Of a stretch of 14,072 nt of DNA, positions 6,758 through 14,072 are shown in pieces; position 1 is the stretch's first letter; each line of letters opens with the position of its first letter. The notes beneath the pieces were generated by a model. It did not search any database and was not told where the DNA came from. It saw only the letters and a program-made list of their open reading frames with translations. Made by a program: the position numbers and the translations under genes. Source of the DNA: Myxococcota bacterium (GTDB taxonomy: Bacteria > Myxococcota_A > UBA796 > CAJQPC01); NCBI GenBank assembly GCA_036012755.1, contig DASCPX010000001.1, positions 1 to 14,072 of the forward strand, in the 5' to 3' direction.

Positions 6758-7777
6758 ATGCTCATCTTCGGACTCATCGCTTGCGGCGGCCCGGTCGCGT
6801 TCCAGGACGACATCGACGACCGCTTGGACATCTTCGGGCCCCGGAACGACGATCTGTCCACGCCATACGTCGAGACCGCCGCCTTCGAGATGAGCATCGT
6901 GCCTCGGCGGGACAAGGACATCACGGGCTGGACGCTGTCCTCCTCCGATCCCACCGTGCTCGAGCTCGGTGAGCTCGAAGCGGACGACTCCGGTCTCTCC
7001 GCCCAGGCGCACGCGCTCTCCACGGGGGAGGTCGAGCTCCAGGCCTTCGACGAGACCGGCAAGCTCCGCGCAACCGAGCTCGTCGAGGTCCGCAGACCCA
7101 CCCGACTCGAGGTCGAGCACGTCGCCCCGCTGCTGCTCGGAGACCCCGACGTCCTCGGCGAGGAGGTCCCGCAGCTGCTCGTCGGCGGCAGCGCCACGAT
7201 GCTGGTCGAGTACTTCGACGAGGACGGCCAGCTGCACGGCCAGGCCGAGGGACTCACCCTCGACGCCCACCCGATGCTGAACCCGACGACGCTGCAGCGG
7301 GACTACGAGGAGAACGTCGACTTCATCCAGATCAGCCCGGAGCTCGCCGGCGACTTCAGCTTCACCGTGAGCATGGGCGACGTGGAGAGGGAGATCGAGG
7401 TCGTCGGCGTGACCATCGACGCGCTGGACCACCTCGCCATCGCGCGCACCGACGAGGAAGAGGACGGCGGCAACCAGGTGGTAGTGGTCCTTGGCGAGGA
7501 CAGCACCGATCGGCCAATCCTCGGGGTCGAGCCCGGCTGGAGGATCAACGGCCAGCTGCGAGAGGAGACAGGAGACGTCTGGGTCTACCAGCTCGAAAAG
7601 GGGGTAGAGAGCCAGGCCATCGCCTCCTTCGACAGACACCAGGTCGGCTTCGACTTCCAGAGCAGCGACGGCGCCGTCCACAGCACGAACACCCCGGGCT
7701 GCAGCGCCACCGGCCTGGGGGCCTCGGCCCTGCTGGCCATGGCCGGCCTCGTCGTCATTCGAAGGCGCTCCACATGA
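6758..7777 (+). CDS. MYXO-CTERM-sorted surface protein (paralog 1), probably Ig-like beta-sandwich domains
   Basis: AGGAG RBS; N-terminus 'MLIFGLIAC'; C-terminus 'PGCSATGLGASALLAMAGLVVIRRRST' (GC motif, TM helix, Arg cluster); 'WTLSSSDPTVL' is Big_2-like. Confidence 0.82.
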   Translation: MLIFGLIACGGPVAFQDDIDDRLDIFGPRNDDLSTPYVETAAFEMSIVPRRDKDITGWTLSSSDPTVLELGELEADDSGLSAQAHALSTGEVELQAFDETGKLRATELVEVRRPTRLEVEHVAPLLLGDPDVLGEEVPQLLVGGSATMLVEYFDEDGQLHGQAEGLTLDAHPMLNPTTLQRDYEENVDFIQISPELAGDFSFTVSMGDVEREIEVVGVTIDALDHLAIARTDEEEDGGNQVVVVLGEDSTDRPILGVEPGWRINGQLREETGDVWVYQLEKGVESQAIASFDRHQVGFDFQSSDGAVHSTNTPGCSATGLGASALLAMAGLVVIRRRST

Positions 7778-8799
7778 TCGTCTTCGGCTTCACCGCCTGC
7801 CTGTCCGGTCACGTCTCCTTCGAAGACGACCTCGACGTCCGAGTCGACCTCGCGGCGACCGAGAGCGACCGGCTCCACACCCCCTACGTTCGAGGTGCGG
7901 CCTTCGACATCACAGCTCGGCGCGACGGCGTCGTGGACCTCTCGGACTGGCAGCTGGTCAGCTCGAACGAGCTGGTCCTCGACGTCGTCGACCTCCGAGC
8001 AGGCGAGGACTCCCTGACCGCCAGCGTAGAGGCCATCGGCGAGGGCGAGGCCCGCATCGAGCTCCTCGGCGCCAGCGGCGACCTCGTCGATGCCCGCGTC
8101 CTCGAGGTGGCCTTCCCCGAGTCCGTCTCGCTGCGTCACGAGAACGCCCTGCGGCTCGGCGTCGAGAGCGACGACGAGTTCGCCCTCGCCTGGGACGGCC
8201 AGGGCCGCTACCTCGCGACCTACATCGACGACCAGGGCCGCGAGCTCTCGGGCCACGGCGTGCTCTCGGCCGGGGATCTCGCCCCACTGCTCGAGGTGGA
8301 CGTCGACGACTTCGCCTGGGGCGAGGACCGGGACTGGGTGACCCTGACCAGCGGCTGGTACGAAGGCGCGGCCGATGTGGAGCTCTACGTCGACGGCGAG
8401 CTCGCCGACGAGCTCTACGTCGAAGTGGTCGGGCCCGCCGACGTCGAGGAGATCGAGGTCATCACCTCCGACGAGGGCGCCGCGACGGAAGGCCAGGATC
8501 TGCTCGCCTGGACCCTCGGCTTCACGATGGACGGGCGCGAGGTCCACGGTGTCGACGCGACCTGGGACGCTGGTGGCCTGGCGCTCCGGGTGGGTGACAC
8601 GGTCGAGTACGTCTTCGACCCCACCGAGCCGACGGACCTCGTCGCCCACTTCGGAGAGAGCGAGGACCGGGCGCTCATCCACGGCAGCGAGTTCCCGGGG
8701 GCGCGGCCTCCCGGCGGCTGCTCGGCGACGGGCCTCGGCGCCACTGGAGCCCTGGCCTTTTTGGGTCTGCTGGTCCTGAGGCGACAGCGACGGGGTTAG
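7774..8799 (+). CDS. MYXO-CTERM-sorted surface protein (paralog 2)
   Basis: ATGA overlap with paralog 1; N-terminus 'MIVFGFTAC'; C-terminus 'GGCSATGLGATGALAFLGLLVLRRQRRG'. Colinear similarity to paralog 1 (L.TPYV..AAF, W.L.SS...VL, Y.D..G). Confidence 0.82.
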   Translation: MIVFGFTACLSGHVSFEDDLDVRVDLAATESDRLHTPYVRGAAFDITARRDGVVDLSDWQLVSSNELVLDVVDLRAGEDSLTASVEAIGEGEARIELLGASGDLVDARVLEVAFPESVSLRHENALRLGVESDDEFALAWDGQGRYLATYIDDQGRELSGHGVLSAGDLAPLLEVDVDDFAWGEDRDWVTLTSGWYEGAADVELYVDGELADELYVEVVGPADVEEIEVITSDEGAATEGQDLLAWTLGFTMDGREVHGVDATWDAGGLALRVGDTVEYVFDPTEPTDLVAHFGESEDRALIHGSEFPGARPPGGCSATGLGATGALAFLGLLVLRRQRRG

Positions 8800-8808
8800 G
8801 CTCGGGCC

Positions 8809-9870
8809 GTGGCCGTCCCGACCGAACTGATCCGAGACCTGCCGCTGTTTCGCATGGTTCCAGCCCACCACCTGGACCAGGCGGCGGAGCTGGCGATGAT
8901 CTCCGTCGAGGTCGGCGAGGGTGAGCTGCTCCTGGCGGAGGGAGAGCGGGACGACTCGTTGATGGTCGTGCTGCAAGGCGAGCTGGAGATCATCAAGGGG
9001 GATCCCTCGGTGCGCATCGCCCGGGTGGGCCGCGGCGAGATCCTCGGCGACATGGCCCTGTTCGGGGGCAGCGGTGTCCGCACGGCGACGGTGCGGACCC
9101 TGTGTCCCAGCTCCTTCGTGCTGATGGAGCAGACCGGCCTCGCGATCCTGCGCGCGCACGGCAACCAGCTCGTGACGGTGCTGGAGTCGACGGCGCTCCG
9201 GACCCTGGGTCGCCGCCTGCGAGACATGAACGACCGCATCTCGGAGATGGCGGTGGGGACCGAGCTGGCGCCAGAGGAACCCTCTGGGCTCCTCGCCCGC
9301 CTGCGCTCCCTGTTCGCGTCGGCCGACCAGGGACCCAAGGGACCTGCCCCCAACCCGGCGTCCGTGCTCGCGAACAGCTCCAGCTTCGACATCCTGCCTG
9401 CCGACAGCCGCGACGCCCTCGCCGACGAGCTGGAGGTCCTCTCGATCCCGGCTGGCACGGTCCTGCTGCAAGAGGGCGAAGTGGGCGACGACGCCTACGT
9501 GGTCGCAGCCGGGCGCGTCGACGTCTACCGAGCGACGCGCACCTTCGAGAACAAGAAGCTGGCCGAGTTCGGGCCGGGCTCTGTGTTCGGGCTGGTCTCG
9601 CTGGTCCACGGCAACGTGCGCTCCGCGACCTGCTATGCGCCCGTCGGGAGCTGGCTGCTCAAGCTGCCAGGCAGCGTCTACCGCGAGCTCGAGGGCACGA
9701 ACTCGATCGAGGCCCAGGCCATGCGAGGCGTCGTCTACCAGTCCCTGGCCCGTCAGCTCGCCGGCGCCAACGAACACGTCGCCCTGCTGATCGCGGCGCT
9801 CGCCCGGGACCCGACCATCACCGAGCGCGAGCGTGCCGCCTACCGGGCCCTGGTCGTCGACTCGATCTGA
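8809..9870 (+). CDS. Protein with two tandem cyclic-nucleotide-binding (CAP_ED) domains and no visible effector domain
   Basis: Domain 1 'LLAEGERDDSLMVVLQGELEI...GEILGDMALFGGSGVRTATV'. Domain 2 'LLQEGEVGDDAYVVAAGRVDV...GSVFGLVSLVHGNVRSATC'. No C-terminal HTH. GTG start. Confidence 0.88.
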   Translation: MAVPTELIRDLPLFRMVPAHHLDQAAELAMISVEVGEGELLLAEGERDDSLMVVLQGELEIIKGDPSVRIARVGRGEILGDMALFGGSGVRTATVRTLCPSSFVLMEQTGLAILRAHGNQLVTVLESTALRTLGRRLRDMNDRISEMAVGTELAPEEPSGLLARLRSLFASADQGPKGPAPNPASVLANSSSFDILPADSRDALADELEVLSIPAGTVLLQEGEVGDDAYVVAAGRVDVYRATRTFENKKLAEFGPGSVFGLVSLVHGNVRSATCYAPVGSWLLKLPGSVYRELEGTNSIEAQAMRGVVYQSLARQLAGANEHVALLIAALARDPTITERERAAYRALVVDSI

Positions 9871-9924
9871 GCGCACCGGCGACCGCGGCGCGATAGCTTC
9901 GTCGCCCCCTTTGCAAGGGATCAC

Positions 9925-11241
9925 ATGCTCCTGCTCTACGCCATGAACGCACACGCCGTGAACCTGTCCATCCCCCACGAGCAGTACCAGCTCGACAACG
10001 GCCTCAACGTCGTCCTCGTCGAGGATCACAGCCTCCCGCAGGTGGTGATCAACCTCTGGTACGGCGTCGGGAGCAAGGACGAGGCGTCCGGTCGCACGGG
10101 CTTCGCCCACCTCTTCGAGCACCTCATGTTCATGGGCACCACCCGCCTGCCGGACAGCGGCTTCGACGACCTCATGGAGGGGCAGGGCGGCTGGAACAAC
10201 GCCTGGACCAGCGAAGACGCCACCGACTACTACGAGGTCGGCCCCTCCAGCCTCGTCGAGCTCTTCCTCTGGATGGAGGCGGACCGCATGGATGGCCTCG
10301 CCGGCGCGATGACGCAGGACAAGCTCGACCTCCAGCGCGAGGTCGTGCGCAACGAGCGGCGCCAGTCCTACGAGAACGCACCCTACGGCCAGGTCGGGCT
10401 GGACATGCCGGCGGCGCTCTACCCAGAGGGGCACCCCTACGCCCACACGGTCATCGGCAGCCACGAAGACCTCGAGGCCGCCACCCTGGCCGACGTCGTC
10501 GGCTTCTTCGACACCTGGTACGTGCCAAACAACGCCTCCCTGGTCGTCGCGGGGGACATCGACGTCGACAAGACGAAGGCCGACATCGAGCGCCTCTTCG
10601 GCGGCCTCGAGATGGGCCCCCTGCCAGCGCTCGAGATGGTCGCCACTCCCCTGAAGCCCGTGCAGCCCCTGGTGGAGATCACCGACGAGAGCATCGAGAC
10701 GCCCCTGACGATGACCGTCTGGCACAGCGCGGCCGCCCTCCAGCCAGGAGACGCCGAGCTGGACGTCGTGAGCGCCATCCTCTCCAGTGGGCGCAGCTCG
10801 CGCCTGTATCGACGACTGGTCGACACGGGCGTGGCGCTGGAGGTCCACGCCTGGCAATACAGCCAGCTCCTGTCTTCGATCTTCGGCATCGAGGCCAAGC
10901 CGGCGGAGGGCCACACCGTCGAGGAGATCGAGGCCATCGTCTACGAAGAGCTCGCCCGGCTCGCAGAAAAGGGGCCGACCGATGCGGAGCTCGAGCGTGT
11001 CGTCAACGCCTACGAGATGCGCTTCATCCGGAACCTGGAGTCGCTCCAGGCTCGGGCCAGCGCGCTGAACCGCTACCACTACCTCGTGGGCGAGCCCGAC
11101 TACCTCGAGAAAGACCTCGCCCGCTACAGGGCCGTGGACGCCGAAGCGGTCCAGGGAGCCGCCCGTCAGCTCACGGCTGAGCGGGCAGCGACCTTCCATG
11201 TCTTCCCTCCGGCTCCCGAGCCCACGGAGGAGACCGACTGA
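9925..11241 (+). CDS. M16B family zinc metallopeptidase, catalytic subunit
   Basis: 'LDNGLNVVL', 'WYGVGSKDE..GRTGFAHLFEHLMFMGT' (inverted zinc motif HxxEH), 'NAWTS.DATDY', 'VVRNERRQ', 'HPYAHTVIGS' and 'WYVPNNASLVVAGD'. Confidence 0.96.
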   Translation: MLLLYAMNAHAVNLSIPHEQYQLDNGLNVVLVEDHSLPQVVINLWYGVGSKDEASGRTGFAHLFEHLMFMGTTRLPDSGFDDLMEGQGGWNNAWTSEDATDYYEVGPSSLVELFLWMEADRMDGLAGAMTQDKLDLQREVVRNERRQSYENAPYGQVGLDMPAALYPEGHPYAHTVIGSHEDLEAATLADVVGFFDTWYVPNNASLVVAGDIDVDKTKADIERLFGGLEMGPLPALEMVATPLKPVQPLVEITDESIETPLTMTVWHSAAALQPGDAELDVVSAILSSGRSSRLYRRLVDTGVALEVHAWQYSQLLSSIFGIEAKPAEGHTVEEIEAIVYEELARLAEKGPTDAELERVVNAYEMRFIRNLESLQARASALNRYHYLVGEPDYLEKDLARYRAVDAEAVQGAARQLTAERAATFHVFPPAPEPTEETD

Positions 11242-12641
11242 TGCTGCTGTACGCCACCCTCCTCGCCTGCCCCAAGAAGAACCCCGAGAGTGCGGCCATG
11301 CCGGAGAGCTCCCTGGCCGAGCGGCCCGAGATCCCCGCTCCCCTCAGCTTCACCCCACCGACCGCCGAGCTCCTGAAGCTCGAGTCCGGAGCGGAGCTGT
11401 GGGTCATCCACCAACCCGGACTCCCGCTCGTCGCCATCGATCTCGTCGTCCACGGCGGCAAGGCCGCGGATGGCATCGCCGGCGAAGCGCGCCTCTGCGA
11501 CAAGATGATGCTCCGCGGGGCCGGTGAACGGGACGCGACCGCCTTCGCAGAGGTCCTCGACCAGCAGGCCATCGACCTGTCCACCGCCACCTACGACACC
11601 GCCTCCATGATCTCGCTGGCGACCCACACCGGGCGCCTCTCCACGGGCCTGGAGCTGATGGCAGACGCCGTCGTGCATCCCACCCTGGAACCCGAGGAGT
11701 TCGACAAGCTGCTCGCCCAGACCAAGGCATCGCTGGACGAGAACCTCGCGCGGCCTCCGGTCGTCGCCTCCTGGGTCGCGAGCCGCCTCTACTGGGGCGA
11801 GGGTCACCCCCTCTCGAACCCGGCCATCGGCACGAAGGCATCCTTGGAAGAGGTGGGCGTCGAGGCCTGCACCGCCTCTCTCGAGACACGCTTCCGGCCG
11901 GATCGGGCGACCTTCGTCGTCGCCGGCGATCTGTCCGCAGAGGACGCGAAGGTGGCCCTGGATGCAGCCTTCGCGGACTGGACCGGCCCTGCCGAGGAGC
12001 CTCTGGATCTGCCCTCGGCCGAGCCGAGCCCGGGCTTCTACCTGGTCGACGACCCGGGCTCCACCCAGTCGAGCCTGCGGGTGGTCATGCCCGGGTGGCA
12101 CGCCGTGCACCCCGAGCGCACCAGCGCCCAGCTGGGTGTCATCGTGCTCGGCGGCACCTTCACCTCTCGCCTGAACCGGCTGCTGCGCGAGGAGAAGGGC
12201 TACACCTACGGCGCCAGGGCGAACCTCTCCTACGGCGCCGGCTACGGCCAGGTCGTGGCCTCCACCAGCGTGCGCTCAGACGTCACTGGAGCGGGTCTGC
12301 GAGACCTGCTCGACCAGCTGCAGCTCGTCACAGAGGGCATCGACACCGCGGAGCTGGACAAGGCCAAGGGCGCCCGGCGCACGACGCTCACCTCGAGGGT
12401 GGAGACCCGCTCGAGCACGGCGGGCACCTGGGCCTGGTACATGGCCGACGGCCAGCCTTCCAGCCAGATGGCAGAAGACCTCGCCGCGATCGACGCCGCC
12501 ACACTGGAGACCGTGAACGCAGCCTTGGCCCAGCTCGATCTGTCCCAAGCGGTGGTCGTGGTGGTAGGCGACATCAGCCAGATCGAAGCCCAGCTCGCGG
12601 AGCACGTGCCAGAGGCCACCTGGACGACGGTCGAGAAGTAG
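11241..12641 (+). CDS. M16B family peptidase, non-catalytic partner subunit (probable lipoprotein)
   Basis: TGATG overlap with the upstream gene. HxxEH is replaced by 'RLCDK'. The substrate-binding R/Y motif 'SRLNRLLREEKGYTYGA' is retained. N-terminus 'MLLYATLLAC'. Confidence 0.92.
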   Translation: MLLYATLLACPKKNPESAAMPESSLAERPEIPAPLSFTPPTAELLKLESGAELWVIHQPGLPLVAIDLVVHGGKAADGIAGEARLCDKMMLRGAGERDATAFAEVLDQQAIDLSTATYDTASMISLATHTGRLSTGLELMADAVVHPTLEPEEFDKLLAQTKASLDENLARPPVVASWVASRLYWGEGHPLSNPAIGTKASLEEVGVEACTASLETRFRPDRATFVVAGDLSAEDAKVALDAAFADWTGPAEEPLDLPSAEPSPGFYLVDDPGSTQSSLRVVMPGWHAVHPERTSAQLGVIVLGGTFTSRLNRLLREEKGYTYGARANLSYGAGYGQVVASTSVRSDVTGAGLRDLLDQLQLVTEGIDTAELDKAKGARRTTLTSRVETRSSTAGTWAWYMADGQPSSQMAEDLAAIDAATLETVNAALAQLDLSQAVVVVVGDISQIEAQLAEHVPEATWTTVEK

Positions 12642-12654
12642 GCTCACGATGCGC

Positions 12655-13482
12655 TCATAGTGGAGACCTGATCTGCATCCGCCCGGGATCCCGGAGGTGG
12701 ATGTAGCGCATGGTCGTGCGCAGGTCTGCGTGGCCGAGCAACACCTGTATGACGGCGAGGTCCGAGCCTTGTTCGAGCAGATGCGTGGCGAAGGCGTGTC
12801 GCAGCGAGTGCGGCGTCACTTTGCCCTCTACGCCCCCGGCCGCGGCTGCCCTGCCCACGACCTTCTGGATGGACCGAGCCGTGAGCGCCCCGCCTGCATT
12901 TGACGGGATCACCGGCGACTCCGGGTGTCTTCCGTGGGTTTGCTCCCGGAGCGTGTCCGTCAGCATCGGACTGAGCAGTGCGACCCTCTCTTTGCGTCCT
13001 TTGCCTCTCCGGATCCGCAGCTGGAGCCGACTCAGGTCGACATCGCCGACCCGCAGCCCGACGAGCTCACTCACGCGCATGCCACTTGCGTAGAGCAGCA
13101 GGATCACGAGCCGGTGCTTGTCGTTGGTGGTGACCGCAGCCATCGCGAGCACCTCCTCACGGGTAGGGACTCGCGGAAGAAACACCCCCCGCTTCGGCCG
13201 CGGCACCACGAACATCTCCGCCGAGCGCCCGTAGAGCTCGTGGAAGAGCAGCTTCAGCGCGGAGACCACCTGGTTGACGTAGGCCCGGCTCCTGTCCGCC
13301 TCCAGCAGTCCGAGCAGGTAGCTCCGCACCTGCCCGTCAGTGGCGTCACGCGGCACCACCGGATCAATGTGGGCCACGAACCCGCGAAGGCAAGACAGGT
13401 ACGCCTTGATGGTGGTCCGCGCATACCCACGCAGCACCATCTCCTGCTGGTACCGCTCATACAGATCCTGCGAAAGCCCCAC
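12655..13482 (-). CDS. Tyrosine recombinase, integron-integrase-like (N-terminal SAM-like domain, C-terminal SPL), apparently without the IntI-specific insertion; 275 aa
   Basis: Intact catalytic set: R (GMRVSE), K (GKGRKER), HxxR (HSLRH), H (LLGH) and Y (TTMRYIH). N-terminus 'LRGYARTTIKAY...NQVVSALKLLF', then 'LPRVPTREEV', ending 'IRSPL'. The start is placed at GTG 13482 with GGAGG 5 nt upstream, whereas the track starts at 13557. Confidence 0.92.
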   Translation of the reverse strand: MGLSQDLYERYQQEMVLRGYARTTIKAYLSCLRGFVAHIDPVVPRDATDGQVRSYLLGLLEADRSRAYVNQVVSALKLLFHELYGRSAEMFVVPRPKRGVFLPRVPTREEVLAMAAVTTNDKHRLVILLLYASGMRVSELVGLRVGDVDLSRLQLRIRRGKGRKERVALLSPMLTDTLREQTHGRHPESPVIPSNAGGALTARSIQKVVGRAAAAGGVEGKVTPHSLRHAFATHLLEQGSDLAVIQVLLGHADLRTTMRYIHLRDPGRMQIRSPL

Positions 13483-13535
13483 CTCGCCCTCCTCTGCCTC
13501 CGTATCCGCGAGGGGGACCAGAAACTGTCCGGGGG

Positions 13536-13564
13536 ATCGCAGAAGTAGCCCTCTCAAGCATCAA
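13536..13564 (-). promoter_or_regulatory. Possible sigma-70 promoter for the recombinase
   Basis: Minus strand TTGATG-N17-TGCGAT, 53 nt upstream of the GTG. The -10 match is poor. Confidence 0.25.
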
Positions 13565-13566
13565 TG

Positions 13567-13597
13567 CGACACCGGTGTCGGTAGTCAGGCGTTAGGC
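13567..13597 (+). other. Candidate attI-like recombination site: perfect 14-bp palindrome plus GTTRRRY core
   Basis: CGACACCGGTGTCG (13567-13580) is followed 10 nt later by GTTAGGC (13591-13597). It lies about 110 bp upstream of the recombinase start, on the strand where integron attI cores lie. Confidence 0.55.
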
Positions 13598-13622
13598 GAC
13601 ATTGACGAGTGCTTTTAGCCCT

Positions 13623-14072
13623 TTAGTCGTATCGCTCCCGAAGTTGGGACCCTTCGAGTAGTGCCATGAGTTCTGCGCTGCCCTTGAGTGCGTCCGGGGA
13701 GACCATCGTTTCATTGAACTGGCGCCAGATGAGCGCTTCGACGACGGTCGCTTGGAACTTCCACCCTCGGGTGACACCGTACGCTCGGACGCGGGGATCG
13801 TCTGCGTCCTTCCAACGCTCGAACAACCGGGAGAGTGCCTTGTCTCTCTCGTGTTTCTGGAGCCAGTGTGACGTTGCTTCCGGCCCCGCCTCACGGAGGA
13901 CCAGATAGGCGGCGAGCTTGATGAGGGCGTCGCCGAGCTGAGCCTCGGACCAGAGCGCCTGGTCGTCAGACGCGATTTCGATGGCCGCCAGTGCCTCTGC
14001 AGCGGCGTTGCCGTCCGCCTCCGAGATGCGCTGACCTTCCCCACGGCCTGTCAGTACGTGCCCGTCGGGTAG
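13623..14072 (-). CDS. 5'-truncated gene: dsRBD-like segment followed by a Mini-III/RNase III-like domain
   Basis: My manual translation shows the frame of track ORF 13623..13826 open to the window end (149 codons): LPDGHVLTGRGEGQRISEADGNAAAEALAAI (dsRBD beta3-alpha2-like), EAQLGDALIKL (13914-13946; cf. LEFLGD/LAYLGDA) and KFQATVVEALIW (13725-13760; cf. ADxxEALIG/TAFEAL). Confidence 0.65.
   Translation of the reverse strand, partial: LPDGHVLTGRGEGQRISEADGNAAAEALAAIEIASDDQALWSEAQLGDALIKLAAYLVLREAGPEATSHWLQKHERDKALSRLFERWKDADDPRVRAYGVTRGWKFQATVVEALIWRQFNETMVSPDALKGSAELMALLEGSQLRERYD

Follow-up and report, generated by a model that had tools for sequence, protein, structure and literature searches.

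Integrons are in practice defined by an integrase with a special insertion, and the locus described here raises the question of whether a tyrosine recombinase lacking that insertion can serve as the integrase of a gene-cassette array. The locus occupies the right-hand end of contig DASCPX010000001.1 (assembly GCA_036012755.1) of a Myxococcota bacterium. There, a gene for an IntI-like recombinase is preceded by a GTTAGGC box, beyond which a further gene ends. The whole contig, 14,072 bp, was analysed and is called the window below; its host genome (G000) comprises 6.73 Mb in 250 contigs at 68% GC, and the sequencing runs containing the window sequence are marine metagenomes. An earlier note on this DNA had proposed the end of a cassette array run by a non-canonical integrase, with cassettes upstream of the recombinase and co-oriented with it. 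Our analysis favours the view, at a probability of about 0.6, that the window represents the attI and integrase end of an integron-like platform whose integrase lacks the insertion.

To define the recombinase, its sequence was compared with curated profiles and with the integron integrase VchIntIA (2a3v). Its 275-aa form is the database protein (P0003), the position of the GTG start being read off the sequence; a longer minus-strand frame (12655-13557) starts at a TTG and has 300 codons. Pfam identified a Phage_integrase domain (9.4e-38) and an N-terminal SAM-like domain, which correspond to a catalytic and a core-binding domain, and an arm-binding domain was absent. In the alignment to VchIntIA, recombinase residues 38-223 matched IntI residues 11-199 and residues 228-300 matched IntI residues 245-317, leaving about 45 IntI residues (200-244 of 2a3v) unmatched. 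The profile TIGR02249 likewise covered the recombinase only at profile positions 5-178 and 238-313, with positions 179-237 unmatched. The results confirmed that the protein has IntI-like ends, including the C-terminal SPL tail common to both proteins, and that the IntI insertion is missing, as the earlier note had described. The scores were 178.9 bits against TIGR02249 (cut-off 265), 105.1 against PRK15417 (cut-off 435), 192 against a XerA-type model, which was the top NCBIfam match (cut-off 220), 157 against XerC (cut-off 335) and 155 against XerD (cut-off 330), and no curated model in the scan reached its cut-off. The TIGR02249 cut-off was also passed by no protein in G000 or in the related genomes G001, G008, G012, G016 and G070. 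The catalytic motifs, namely R in ASGMRVSE, K in GKGRKER, HSLRH, LLGH and Y in MRYIH, lined up with their XerA and IntI counterparts, and the R-K-H-R-H/W-Y set of tyrosine recombinases, as read from HMMER alignments, is complete. The reading frame is intact, and the recombinase may be active.

The evidence that links this protein to gene cassettes came from its homologs. Eleven homologous loci (48-64% identity) have at least 1.7 kb assembled upstream of the recombinase, and in six of them (G012, G016, G424, G439, G452 and G453) cassettes with inverted GTT...AAC flanks lie upstream of the gene. The recombinase-side cassette flank was located a few hundred bases upstream of the recombinase in G012, G016, G424, G439 and G453. 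The clearest array is that of G012, whose homolog is 49% identical. It contains four near-identical sites with 60-61-nt cores, 1059-1215 nt apart, each consisting of AAC, an imperfect hairpin and GTT. The right flank of each site and the left flank of the next one (17-21 nt) are 90-95% complementary, with a sequence that differs from pair to pair. The final flank precedes the recombinase's conserved N-terminus by about 170 nt and is followed by a degenerate site-like stretch. Such complementary cassette ends are the signature of integron cassettes. When the G012 cassettes were closed in silico, all four gave folding energies of -35.7 to -38.7 kcal/mol with 16-20 flank pairs, whereas the 16 non-cognate end combinations gave -22.3 +/- 1.5 kcal/mol (best -24.8) with 0-14 pairs. 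One of these cassettes encodes a Phd/PIN toxin-antitoxin pair.

Elsewhere in the G012 genome the site was found only as one fragment on another contig. Separately, region 7650-9660 of locus L252 (G012:C57) contains a truncated G012 attC core beside GGGTATC tandem repeats, together with an 818-nt unit with 22-nt inverted ends of GTT/AAC type, which may be a cassette at a secondary site.

The complementary flank pairs of the other five loci are listed in the table below. The site boxes of G424 are canonical (GCCCAAC ... GTTAGGC), and its cassette starts with GTTAGGCGAC. Two or more imperfect hairpins of the attC kind, ending in AAC and GTT, were present within a few kb in G012 (four sites), G424, G452 and G453. 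As a background, the 806 kb upstream of 197 recombinase loci contained 1679 inverted repeats, of which only 29 were GTT/AAC-bounded, and six of these 29 came from G012 and G016. At every junction the sequences fit an array that extends in the direction leading away from the recombinase, the arrangement of ordinary integrons. In G012 and in the window the open reading frames (ORFs) share the orientation of the recombinase, and in G424 the orientation is the opposite, canonical one. Thus, the upstream position of the cassettes proposed by the earlier note is borne out in relatives, whereas their co-orientation proved not to be uniform.

The box in the window was then considered in the light of these junctions. 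GTTAGGC is present on the plus strand where it had been reported, 109 nt upstream of the GTG start of the recombinase. By itself this 7-mer is not above chance: shuffling predicts 8.9 GTTRRRY sequences for the window, which has six, a count that 181 of 200 shuffles reached. Its meaning can therefore come only from its position and from comparison with relatives. The recombinase-side box of G424, GTCGCTTAAC, differs from the window sequence GTCGCCTAAC by one base over 10 nt and lies at a comparable place upstream of the start; in G424, this GTCGCTTAAC pairs with the GTTAGGCGAC at the far end of the cassette. In addition, CGCCTAACGCC is the same in the window and upstream of the G008 homolog, where it lies 44 nt from the contig end. 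In view of the G424 and G008 boxes, the GTTAGGC box is read as the candidate crossover box and positions 13533-13590 as the candidate attI, the latter by analogy with the equivalent junction position in relatives. The candidate attI includes a 12-nt palindrome, GACACCGGTGTC, at 13568-13579. No common motif beyond shuffles was detected in the upstream regions of the first 16 loci, nor any k-mer beyond shuffles in their non-coding downstream regions, and an Rfam scan gave only a sub-threshold match, taken as chance.

Between the candidate attI and the recombinase lies a promoter-like motif. It was found at equal distance in G001, with 13 of 13 fixed bases kept, and in two relatives of family f7 (11 of 13). 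Twelve near-exact copies exist elsewhere in G000, and several of the copies that were read stand at a fixed distance upstream of gene starts, suggesting that positions 13516-13532 may act as a promoter. As a further observation, CAGAAACTGTCCGG-type sequences, of which this motif is one, recur at 11 other places in G000 with at most one mismatch (e.g., at C166:15046, C18:586, C19:26929 and C70:128781), some of them inside multi-copy repeats near contig ends; the motif may be a promoter or an operator for a regulator. Just upstream of another recombinase homolog (L278, G453:C36, 911-1132), a unit of about 118 nt is tandemly duplicated, and each copy has a GGACAGAATTTGTCC-type palindrome related to the promoter-like motif.

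Beyond the box, the window ends within the gene that would be the first cassette. Its stop codon faces the box as stated in the earlier note, at a distance of 26 nt instead of 25, and on its own strand the order is indeed the stop codon, then GCCTAAC, with no GTTRRRY partner following. The codon-position GC of this gene (0.72/0.45/0.73) follows the pattern of a real gene; its GC at third codon positions (GC3) is 0.73, compared with 0.90 in the host gene M16b beyond the recombinase. A full-length, 191-aa version of the protein (P0123), 99% identical, is encoded on a 14,829-nt contig of another assembly. This version has an N-terminus resembling a double-stranded RNA-binding domain (dsRBD; Pfam dsrm at E 0.009, under the cut-off), which is a weak match, and there is a weak lead to an RNase III-like fold. 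The protein gave no NCBIfam or PHROGs match, and in Pfam only the sub-threshold dsrm match of the full-length form. Another protein, P0124, encoded on a 779-nt contig of another assembly, consists of the first 93 residues of the dsRBD-like protein fused in-frame to a biotin-lipoyl C-terminal part like that of the biotin carboxyl carrier protein; this fusion is due to chimeric assembly or marks a true junction close to window position 13920.

The neighbourhood of the recombinase was compared with that of relatives to determine whether it is inserted DNA. The order of a cyclic nucleotide (cNMP)-binding gene, M16a and M16b is kept in G002 (same genus), G005, G012 and G003, and similarity to the window stops at the M16b stop codon. 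In these four genomes the next genes are a lipoprotein or MOSC-domain gene and then an epimerase gene, whose G000 orthologs lie at the end of contig C74; in G002, only about 95 nt separate the M16b stop from the lipoprotein/MOSC genes. Since the flanking genes lie side by side in these four relatives, the DNA between them in G000 is inserted; it includes the recombinase, the upstream gene and part of an insertion sequence (IS). The IS part is the 5′ part of an ISKra4-like element at the C74 end, 64.5% identical over 141 aligned residues to the full copy on C184, whose transposase frame of 492 aa (C184:5505-6980) matches NF033572 at 1e-35. As a side observation, the ISKra4-like element is multi-copy in G000, with identical 5′ parts at three contig ends (C74:35501-36137, C58 and C166). 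No IS ends adjoining the recombinase and no invertible segment bracketed by inverted repeats were found, and no direct or inverted repeat joins the left junction to the C74 boundary (score under the shuffle mean). The coordinates of all features are collected in the table.

Features of the window and complementary cassette flanks upstream of recombinase homologs
Feature	Position	Strand	Basis or remark
M16-family peptidase gene (M16b), last gene of the conserved chromosomal flank	11241..12641	+	Pfam Peptidase_M16 and M16_C
13-nt spacer separating convergent stop codons; left edge of the inserted DNA	12642..12654	.	sequence
Tyrosine recombinase, IntI-like, without the IntI insertion	12655..13482	-	275 aa, GTG start at 13482
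Promoter-like motif CCGGACAGTTTCTGGTC	13516..13532	-	about 35 nt upstream of the GTG start
Candidate attI region	13533..13590	.	between promoter motif and box
GTTAGGC, read as GCCTAAC on the strand of the recombinase; putative R box and crossover site of the attI/cassette junction	13591..13597	+	sequence and relatives
Candidate first cassette: last 149 codons and stop of a 191-codon gene	13623..14072	-	runs off the contig; ORF directed toward the recombinase
G016 flank pair	upstream of homolog		22 nt, 91% complementary
G424 flank pair	upstream of homolog		23 nt, 91% complementary
G439 flank pair	upstream of homolog		29 nt, 93% complementary
G452 flank pair	upstream of homolog		26 nt, 88% complementary, repeated cores
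G453 flank pair	upstream of homolog		with two repeated cores of about 150 nt

To see how this junction behaves in natural populations, Logan contigs from four marine-metagenome runs of two studies were compared with window positions 11000-14072. In one study, contigs with the peptidase gene and the recombinase extend to 13718 and 13730, while in the other (runs X2 and X4) such contigs stop or diverge at 13598 and 13604. In three of the four runs, depth right of the box amounted to 0.3-0.6 of the depth left of it; in the remaining run the ratio was 0.8. Only those parts of the stretch that contigs covered were used as evidence. In these metagenome contigs, the recombinase remains linked to the chromosome with no change in depth, and it is the DNA upstream of the gene that varies. 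According to the earlier note, a lack of repeated sites or variable genes beyond 14072 together with conserved synteny across 13591 would make GTTAGGC a chance 7-mer; we found that synteny is not conserved there and that the DNA beyond varies in the population, so that this refuting case did not arise.

Short contigs were also common on this side of the gene. Among the first 16 loci, contig ends lie less than 800 nt from the 5′ side of the recombinase in nine, against one on the 3′ side (Fisher p 0.006), and of 16 further loci, eight again have a contig end no more than 800 nt from the gene's 5′ side. In G472, G018:C45, G008 and G501, the contig ends 23-49 nt past an RYYYAAC box. Something upstream of the recombinase genes defeats short-read assembly. 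A repeat at the start of a G070 contig was recognised as a terminal repeat belonging to an IS or a miniature inverted-repeat transposable element (MITE) and was rejected as an attC site. In other observations, a 55-nt terminal repeat of this IS/MITE kind occurs at six or more places, mostly contig ends (L194 1-60, L249), one copy being about 250 nt upstream of the G070 homolog. Two repeats of about 185 nt on L246 (G070:C161, 186-367 and 1036-1220), 850 nt apart and with GTCCAAC ... GTTAGC ends, are attC-like.

The distribution and relationships of the recombinase were analysed by a homolog search over 5.8 billion proteins. It returned many relatives of about 275 aa (46-66% identity) from metagenome-assembled genomes, of which the few with a named source are labelled Myxococcota, Deltaproteobacteria, Kiritimatiellia or Pseudomonadota. 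Pattern scans for close relatives found only proteins of 29-43% identity. PF22823, listed for distant homologs, was not reproduced on four of those homologs. Within the class, homologs at E <= 1e-65 are present in 30 of 182 genomes, G000 included, a patchy pattern. No conserved neighbours were found around the first seven loci, the recombinase being the only gene common to their neighbourhoods. In a tree of 52 rows, built by a quick method with only one IntI row and several long branches, the family forms a clade of 26 rows (support by the SH-like approximate likelihood-ratio test, SH-aLRT, 99%). This clade lies within a 38-row group of moderate support (SH-aLRT 84), which includes IS91-linked recombinases and a protein of an E. 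coli plasmid annotated as an integron integrase, and which excludes XerD and a Xer-like paralog of G000. The best plasmid matches of the recombinase (34-36% identity) are encoded directly upstream of IS91-family transposase genes; downstream of the window recombinase there is a convergent M16 peptidase gene and no IS91 transposase. A tentative proposal, to which we give somewhat less than even odds, is that true gene-cassette arrays are run by an entire clade of IntI-related recombinases without the insertion, in marine as well as other Myxococcota.

Two loci with tyrosine recombinases were recorded in passing. On the Rufibacter tibetensis plasmid NZ_CP012644.1 (L198, 3368-8515), six small genes of matching orientation, five annotated as hypothetical and one as a DUF6756 protein, come after a 484-aa tyrosine recombinase (39% identical over the match), in a cassette-like layout with one GTT/AAC inverted pair just downstream. 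In G000 itself, contig C89 (1842-4572) has three neighbouring tyrosine-recombinase frames on one strand, resembling a 'recombinase in trio' element. Elsewhere in the window, a 1204-codon minus-strand frame without family match (7585-11199) lies over four plus-strand frames, three of them with Pfam matches, and is probably a spurious antisense frame of high-GC DNA.

Based on these data, a working model can be outlined for the locus. The recombinase would be the integrase of an integron-like gene-capture platform, and the approximately 110 nt between the promoter and GTTAGGC would be its insertion site (attI), with crossover at G/TTAGGC. The upstream gene for the dsRBD/RNase III-like protein would be the first cassette, in reverse orientation. 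By analogy with relatives, excision would release each cassette as a circle, its two ends forming a long hairpin site (AAC ... GTT) by pairing, and integration would take place at the site next to the integrase. The insertion with which IntI reads extrahelical bases is missing from this enzyme; we therefore infer that it may instead recognise a long, near-perfect stem built from the cassette-specific flanks, which measure 17-29 nt in relatives. Recognition of a folded single strand without the I2 helix would have an analogy in the action of Xer on the folded CTX-phage site. The G000 copy presumably has, or had, an array.

Several observations weigh against this model. Neither an attC site nor a second cassette nor a flank partner is present in the window or in the assembled G000 genome; in the window, no attC is visible because the contig ends at 14072, 475 nt past the box. 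A search of the G000 assembly for the flank partner gave only matches with three mismatches, taken as chance, the last 200 nt of the window have no 21-mer or longer in common with the rest of G000, and a genome-wide search for chained GTT/AAC pairs in G000 found none. The one perfect GTT/AAC pair, at the start of C174, was discarded as an inverted duplication in a secretion-ATPase-like gene, probably an assembly artefact; in C174:1-530, the first ~66 nt are an inverted copy of 466-530. Moreover, no cassette was found in five of the 11 well-assembled loci (G001, G047, G375, G446 and G503). Among them is the closest relative, G001 (63% identity, same genus), whose recombinase is solo between a CPBP-type gene and recN; for an empty-site comparison of this locus, its left flank is not syntenic in G002 and recN has no match in G000. 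The contig breaks are of mixed cause, with multi-copy IS at the breaks in G000 and G070. In run X1 the depths were nearly equal (10.1 in the cassette region and 12.3 in the recombinase), and a separate X1 contig equals 13570-13604 with three mismatches and is then unlike the window; as it keeps 13 nt past the putative crossover, a diverged allele fits better than a different cassette. The missing enrichment of GTTRRRY and the close approach of the recombinase stop to a chromosomal gene also count on this side. Of the earlier proposal of an array end, then, the parts that stand are the attC-like arrays adjoining homologs and the box at the matching boundary; the attC site or second cassette it would imply was not seen in G000.

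Some of these points suit a different explanation, in which the protein is an integrase of the usual kind at the edge of a horizontally acquired genomic island or integrative element, with the upstream gene as cargo and an IS, that it once inserted beside the M16 gene by recombining double-stranded att sites, and GTTAGGC is a chance 7-mer. Island integrases are often transcribed toward the junction, and here the recombinase, transcribed in that direction, stops only 13 nt from the chromosomal gene, as would suit an att junction. That the region is an insertion relative to four relatives, that it contains an IS, that its GC3 is lower than that of host genes, that GTTRRRY is at chance level and that five of the 11 loci lack cassettes would all be expected. 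On the other hand, no direct repeat was found between the left junction and the right-hand boundary region, and the recombinase keeps its place on the chromosome at constant depth while the upstream DNA varies, which would be unexpected if the whole island moved. Six of the 11 homologs, moreover, abut attC-bounded cassettes, and the G424 box nearly matches that of the window. We consider this explanation fairly unlikely, though a serious competitor.

The solo gene in G001, the invasion of the region by an IS and the absence of an assembled array anywhere in G000 would equally agree with a solo or decayed platform, that is, an In0-like remnant with no working array, in which the box and the upstream gene are leftovers or unrelated. 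Such decay seems improbable for a recombinase with an intact frame, all catalytic motifs and a conserved promoter-like motif, and the variation past the box in populations from two studies suggests ongoing turnover. Very improbable, in our view, is a role as the accessory recombinase of an IS91-type transposon, or as a Xer-type dimer resolvase or an invertase. The plasmid matches next to IS91-family transposase genes and the XerA-type top NCBIfam match point that way. Against it, the neighbouring gene is an M16 peptidase gene instead of an IS91 transposase gene, the family clade is separate from the IS91-linked proteins and XerD, its patchy occurrence in unrelated neighbourhoods is unlike that of a housekeeping Xer, G000 has other Xer-like genes, and inverted repeats around an invertible segment are missing. 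The integrase end of an integron-like platform remains the favoured reading of the window.

If the whole clade does run true cassette arrays, integron-type cassette capture can do without the I2 insertion, long cassette-specific stems replacing the recognition of extrahelical bases. The systems could then be an ancestral, pre-I2 form of the integron, and many 'CALINs' (clusters of attC sites lacking integron-integrases) may have an integrase that current tools ignore. A conserved insertion-less family at array ends would widen the search for integron-type capture, and part of the 'orphan' arrays would be reclassified. The family would also offer a natural system for testing the recombination of attC-like hairpins without the I2 helix. 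The value of the window itself is narrower: it would hold the integrase part of one such platform, in an uncultured marine myxobacterium. In the literature searched, which was covered in part and without supplements, we found no description of insertion-less integrases running cassette arrays in Myxococcota.

Sedentary chromosomal integrons, such as the Vibrio superintegron, consist of IntI, attI and arrays of similar attC sites. The systems described here are like them in that the insertion site lies 5′ of a tyrosine recombinase gene, that the array in relatives runs away from it and is built of near-identical imperfect AAC/GTT hairpins with complementary cassette ends, and that toxin-antitoxin cassettes and some reversed ORFs occur. 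They differ in an integrase that lacks the IntI insertion of about 45-60 residues and stays below curated IntI cut-offs, in complementary flanks of 17-29 nt instead of about 7 nt, and in that all cassette ORFs in the window and in G012 point toward the integrase. According to the available part of a survey of tyrosine recombinases, the insertion is specific to IntI and absent in its closest homologues (Smyshlyaev, Barabas and Bateman, bioRxiv 10.1101/542381). The window recombinase resembles the 'integron-like' simple tyrosine recombinases in the portion of that survey consulted: it has two domains, is near IntI, is insertion-less and falls in a tree group with IntI and IS91-linked proteins (10.1101/542381). 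In contrast to that subgroup, whose members named in the consulted portion come from IS91 and IS3 transposons (10.1101/542381), the window family is a separate clade with no adjoining IS91 transposase and with cassette arrays at six of 11 loci.

The insertion has been regarded, in the section of the source available to us, as the step that enables recombination of single-stranded attC sites (PMC7790495). The same material offers a parallel in Xer acting on folded single-stranded CTX-phage DNA, where an insertion-less recombinase likewise works on a folded hairpin; there, however, a phage hijacks the host XerC/D at dif, with no cassette array and no dedicated recombinase (PMC7790495). As far as the accessible text shows, genome surveys discard recombinases lacking the IntI insertion, and Cury et al. 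(2016) found only four IntI/Xer intermediates near attC, each with fewer than three sites, and concluded that they are not IntI (PMC4889954). Under the intI_Cterm criterion as given there, the arrays of G012, G424 and others, whose recombinase is without that region, would presumably be filed as CALINs (PMC4889954). Unlike CALINs, they have a recombinase of one conserved family at their end, next to a hybrid junction, and this holds for several genera.

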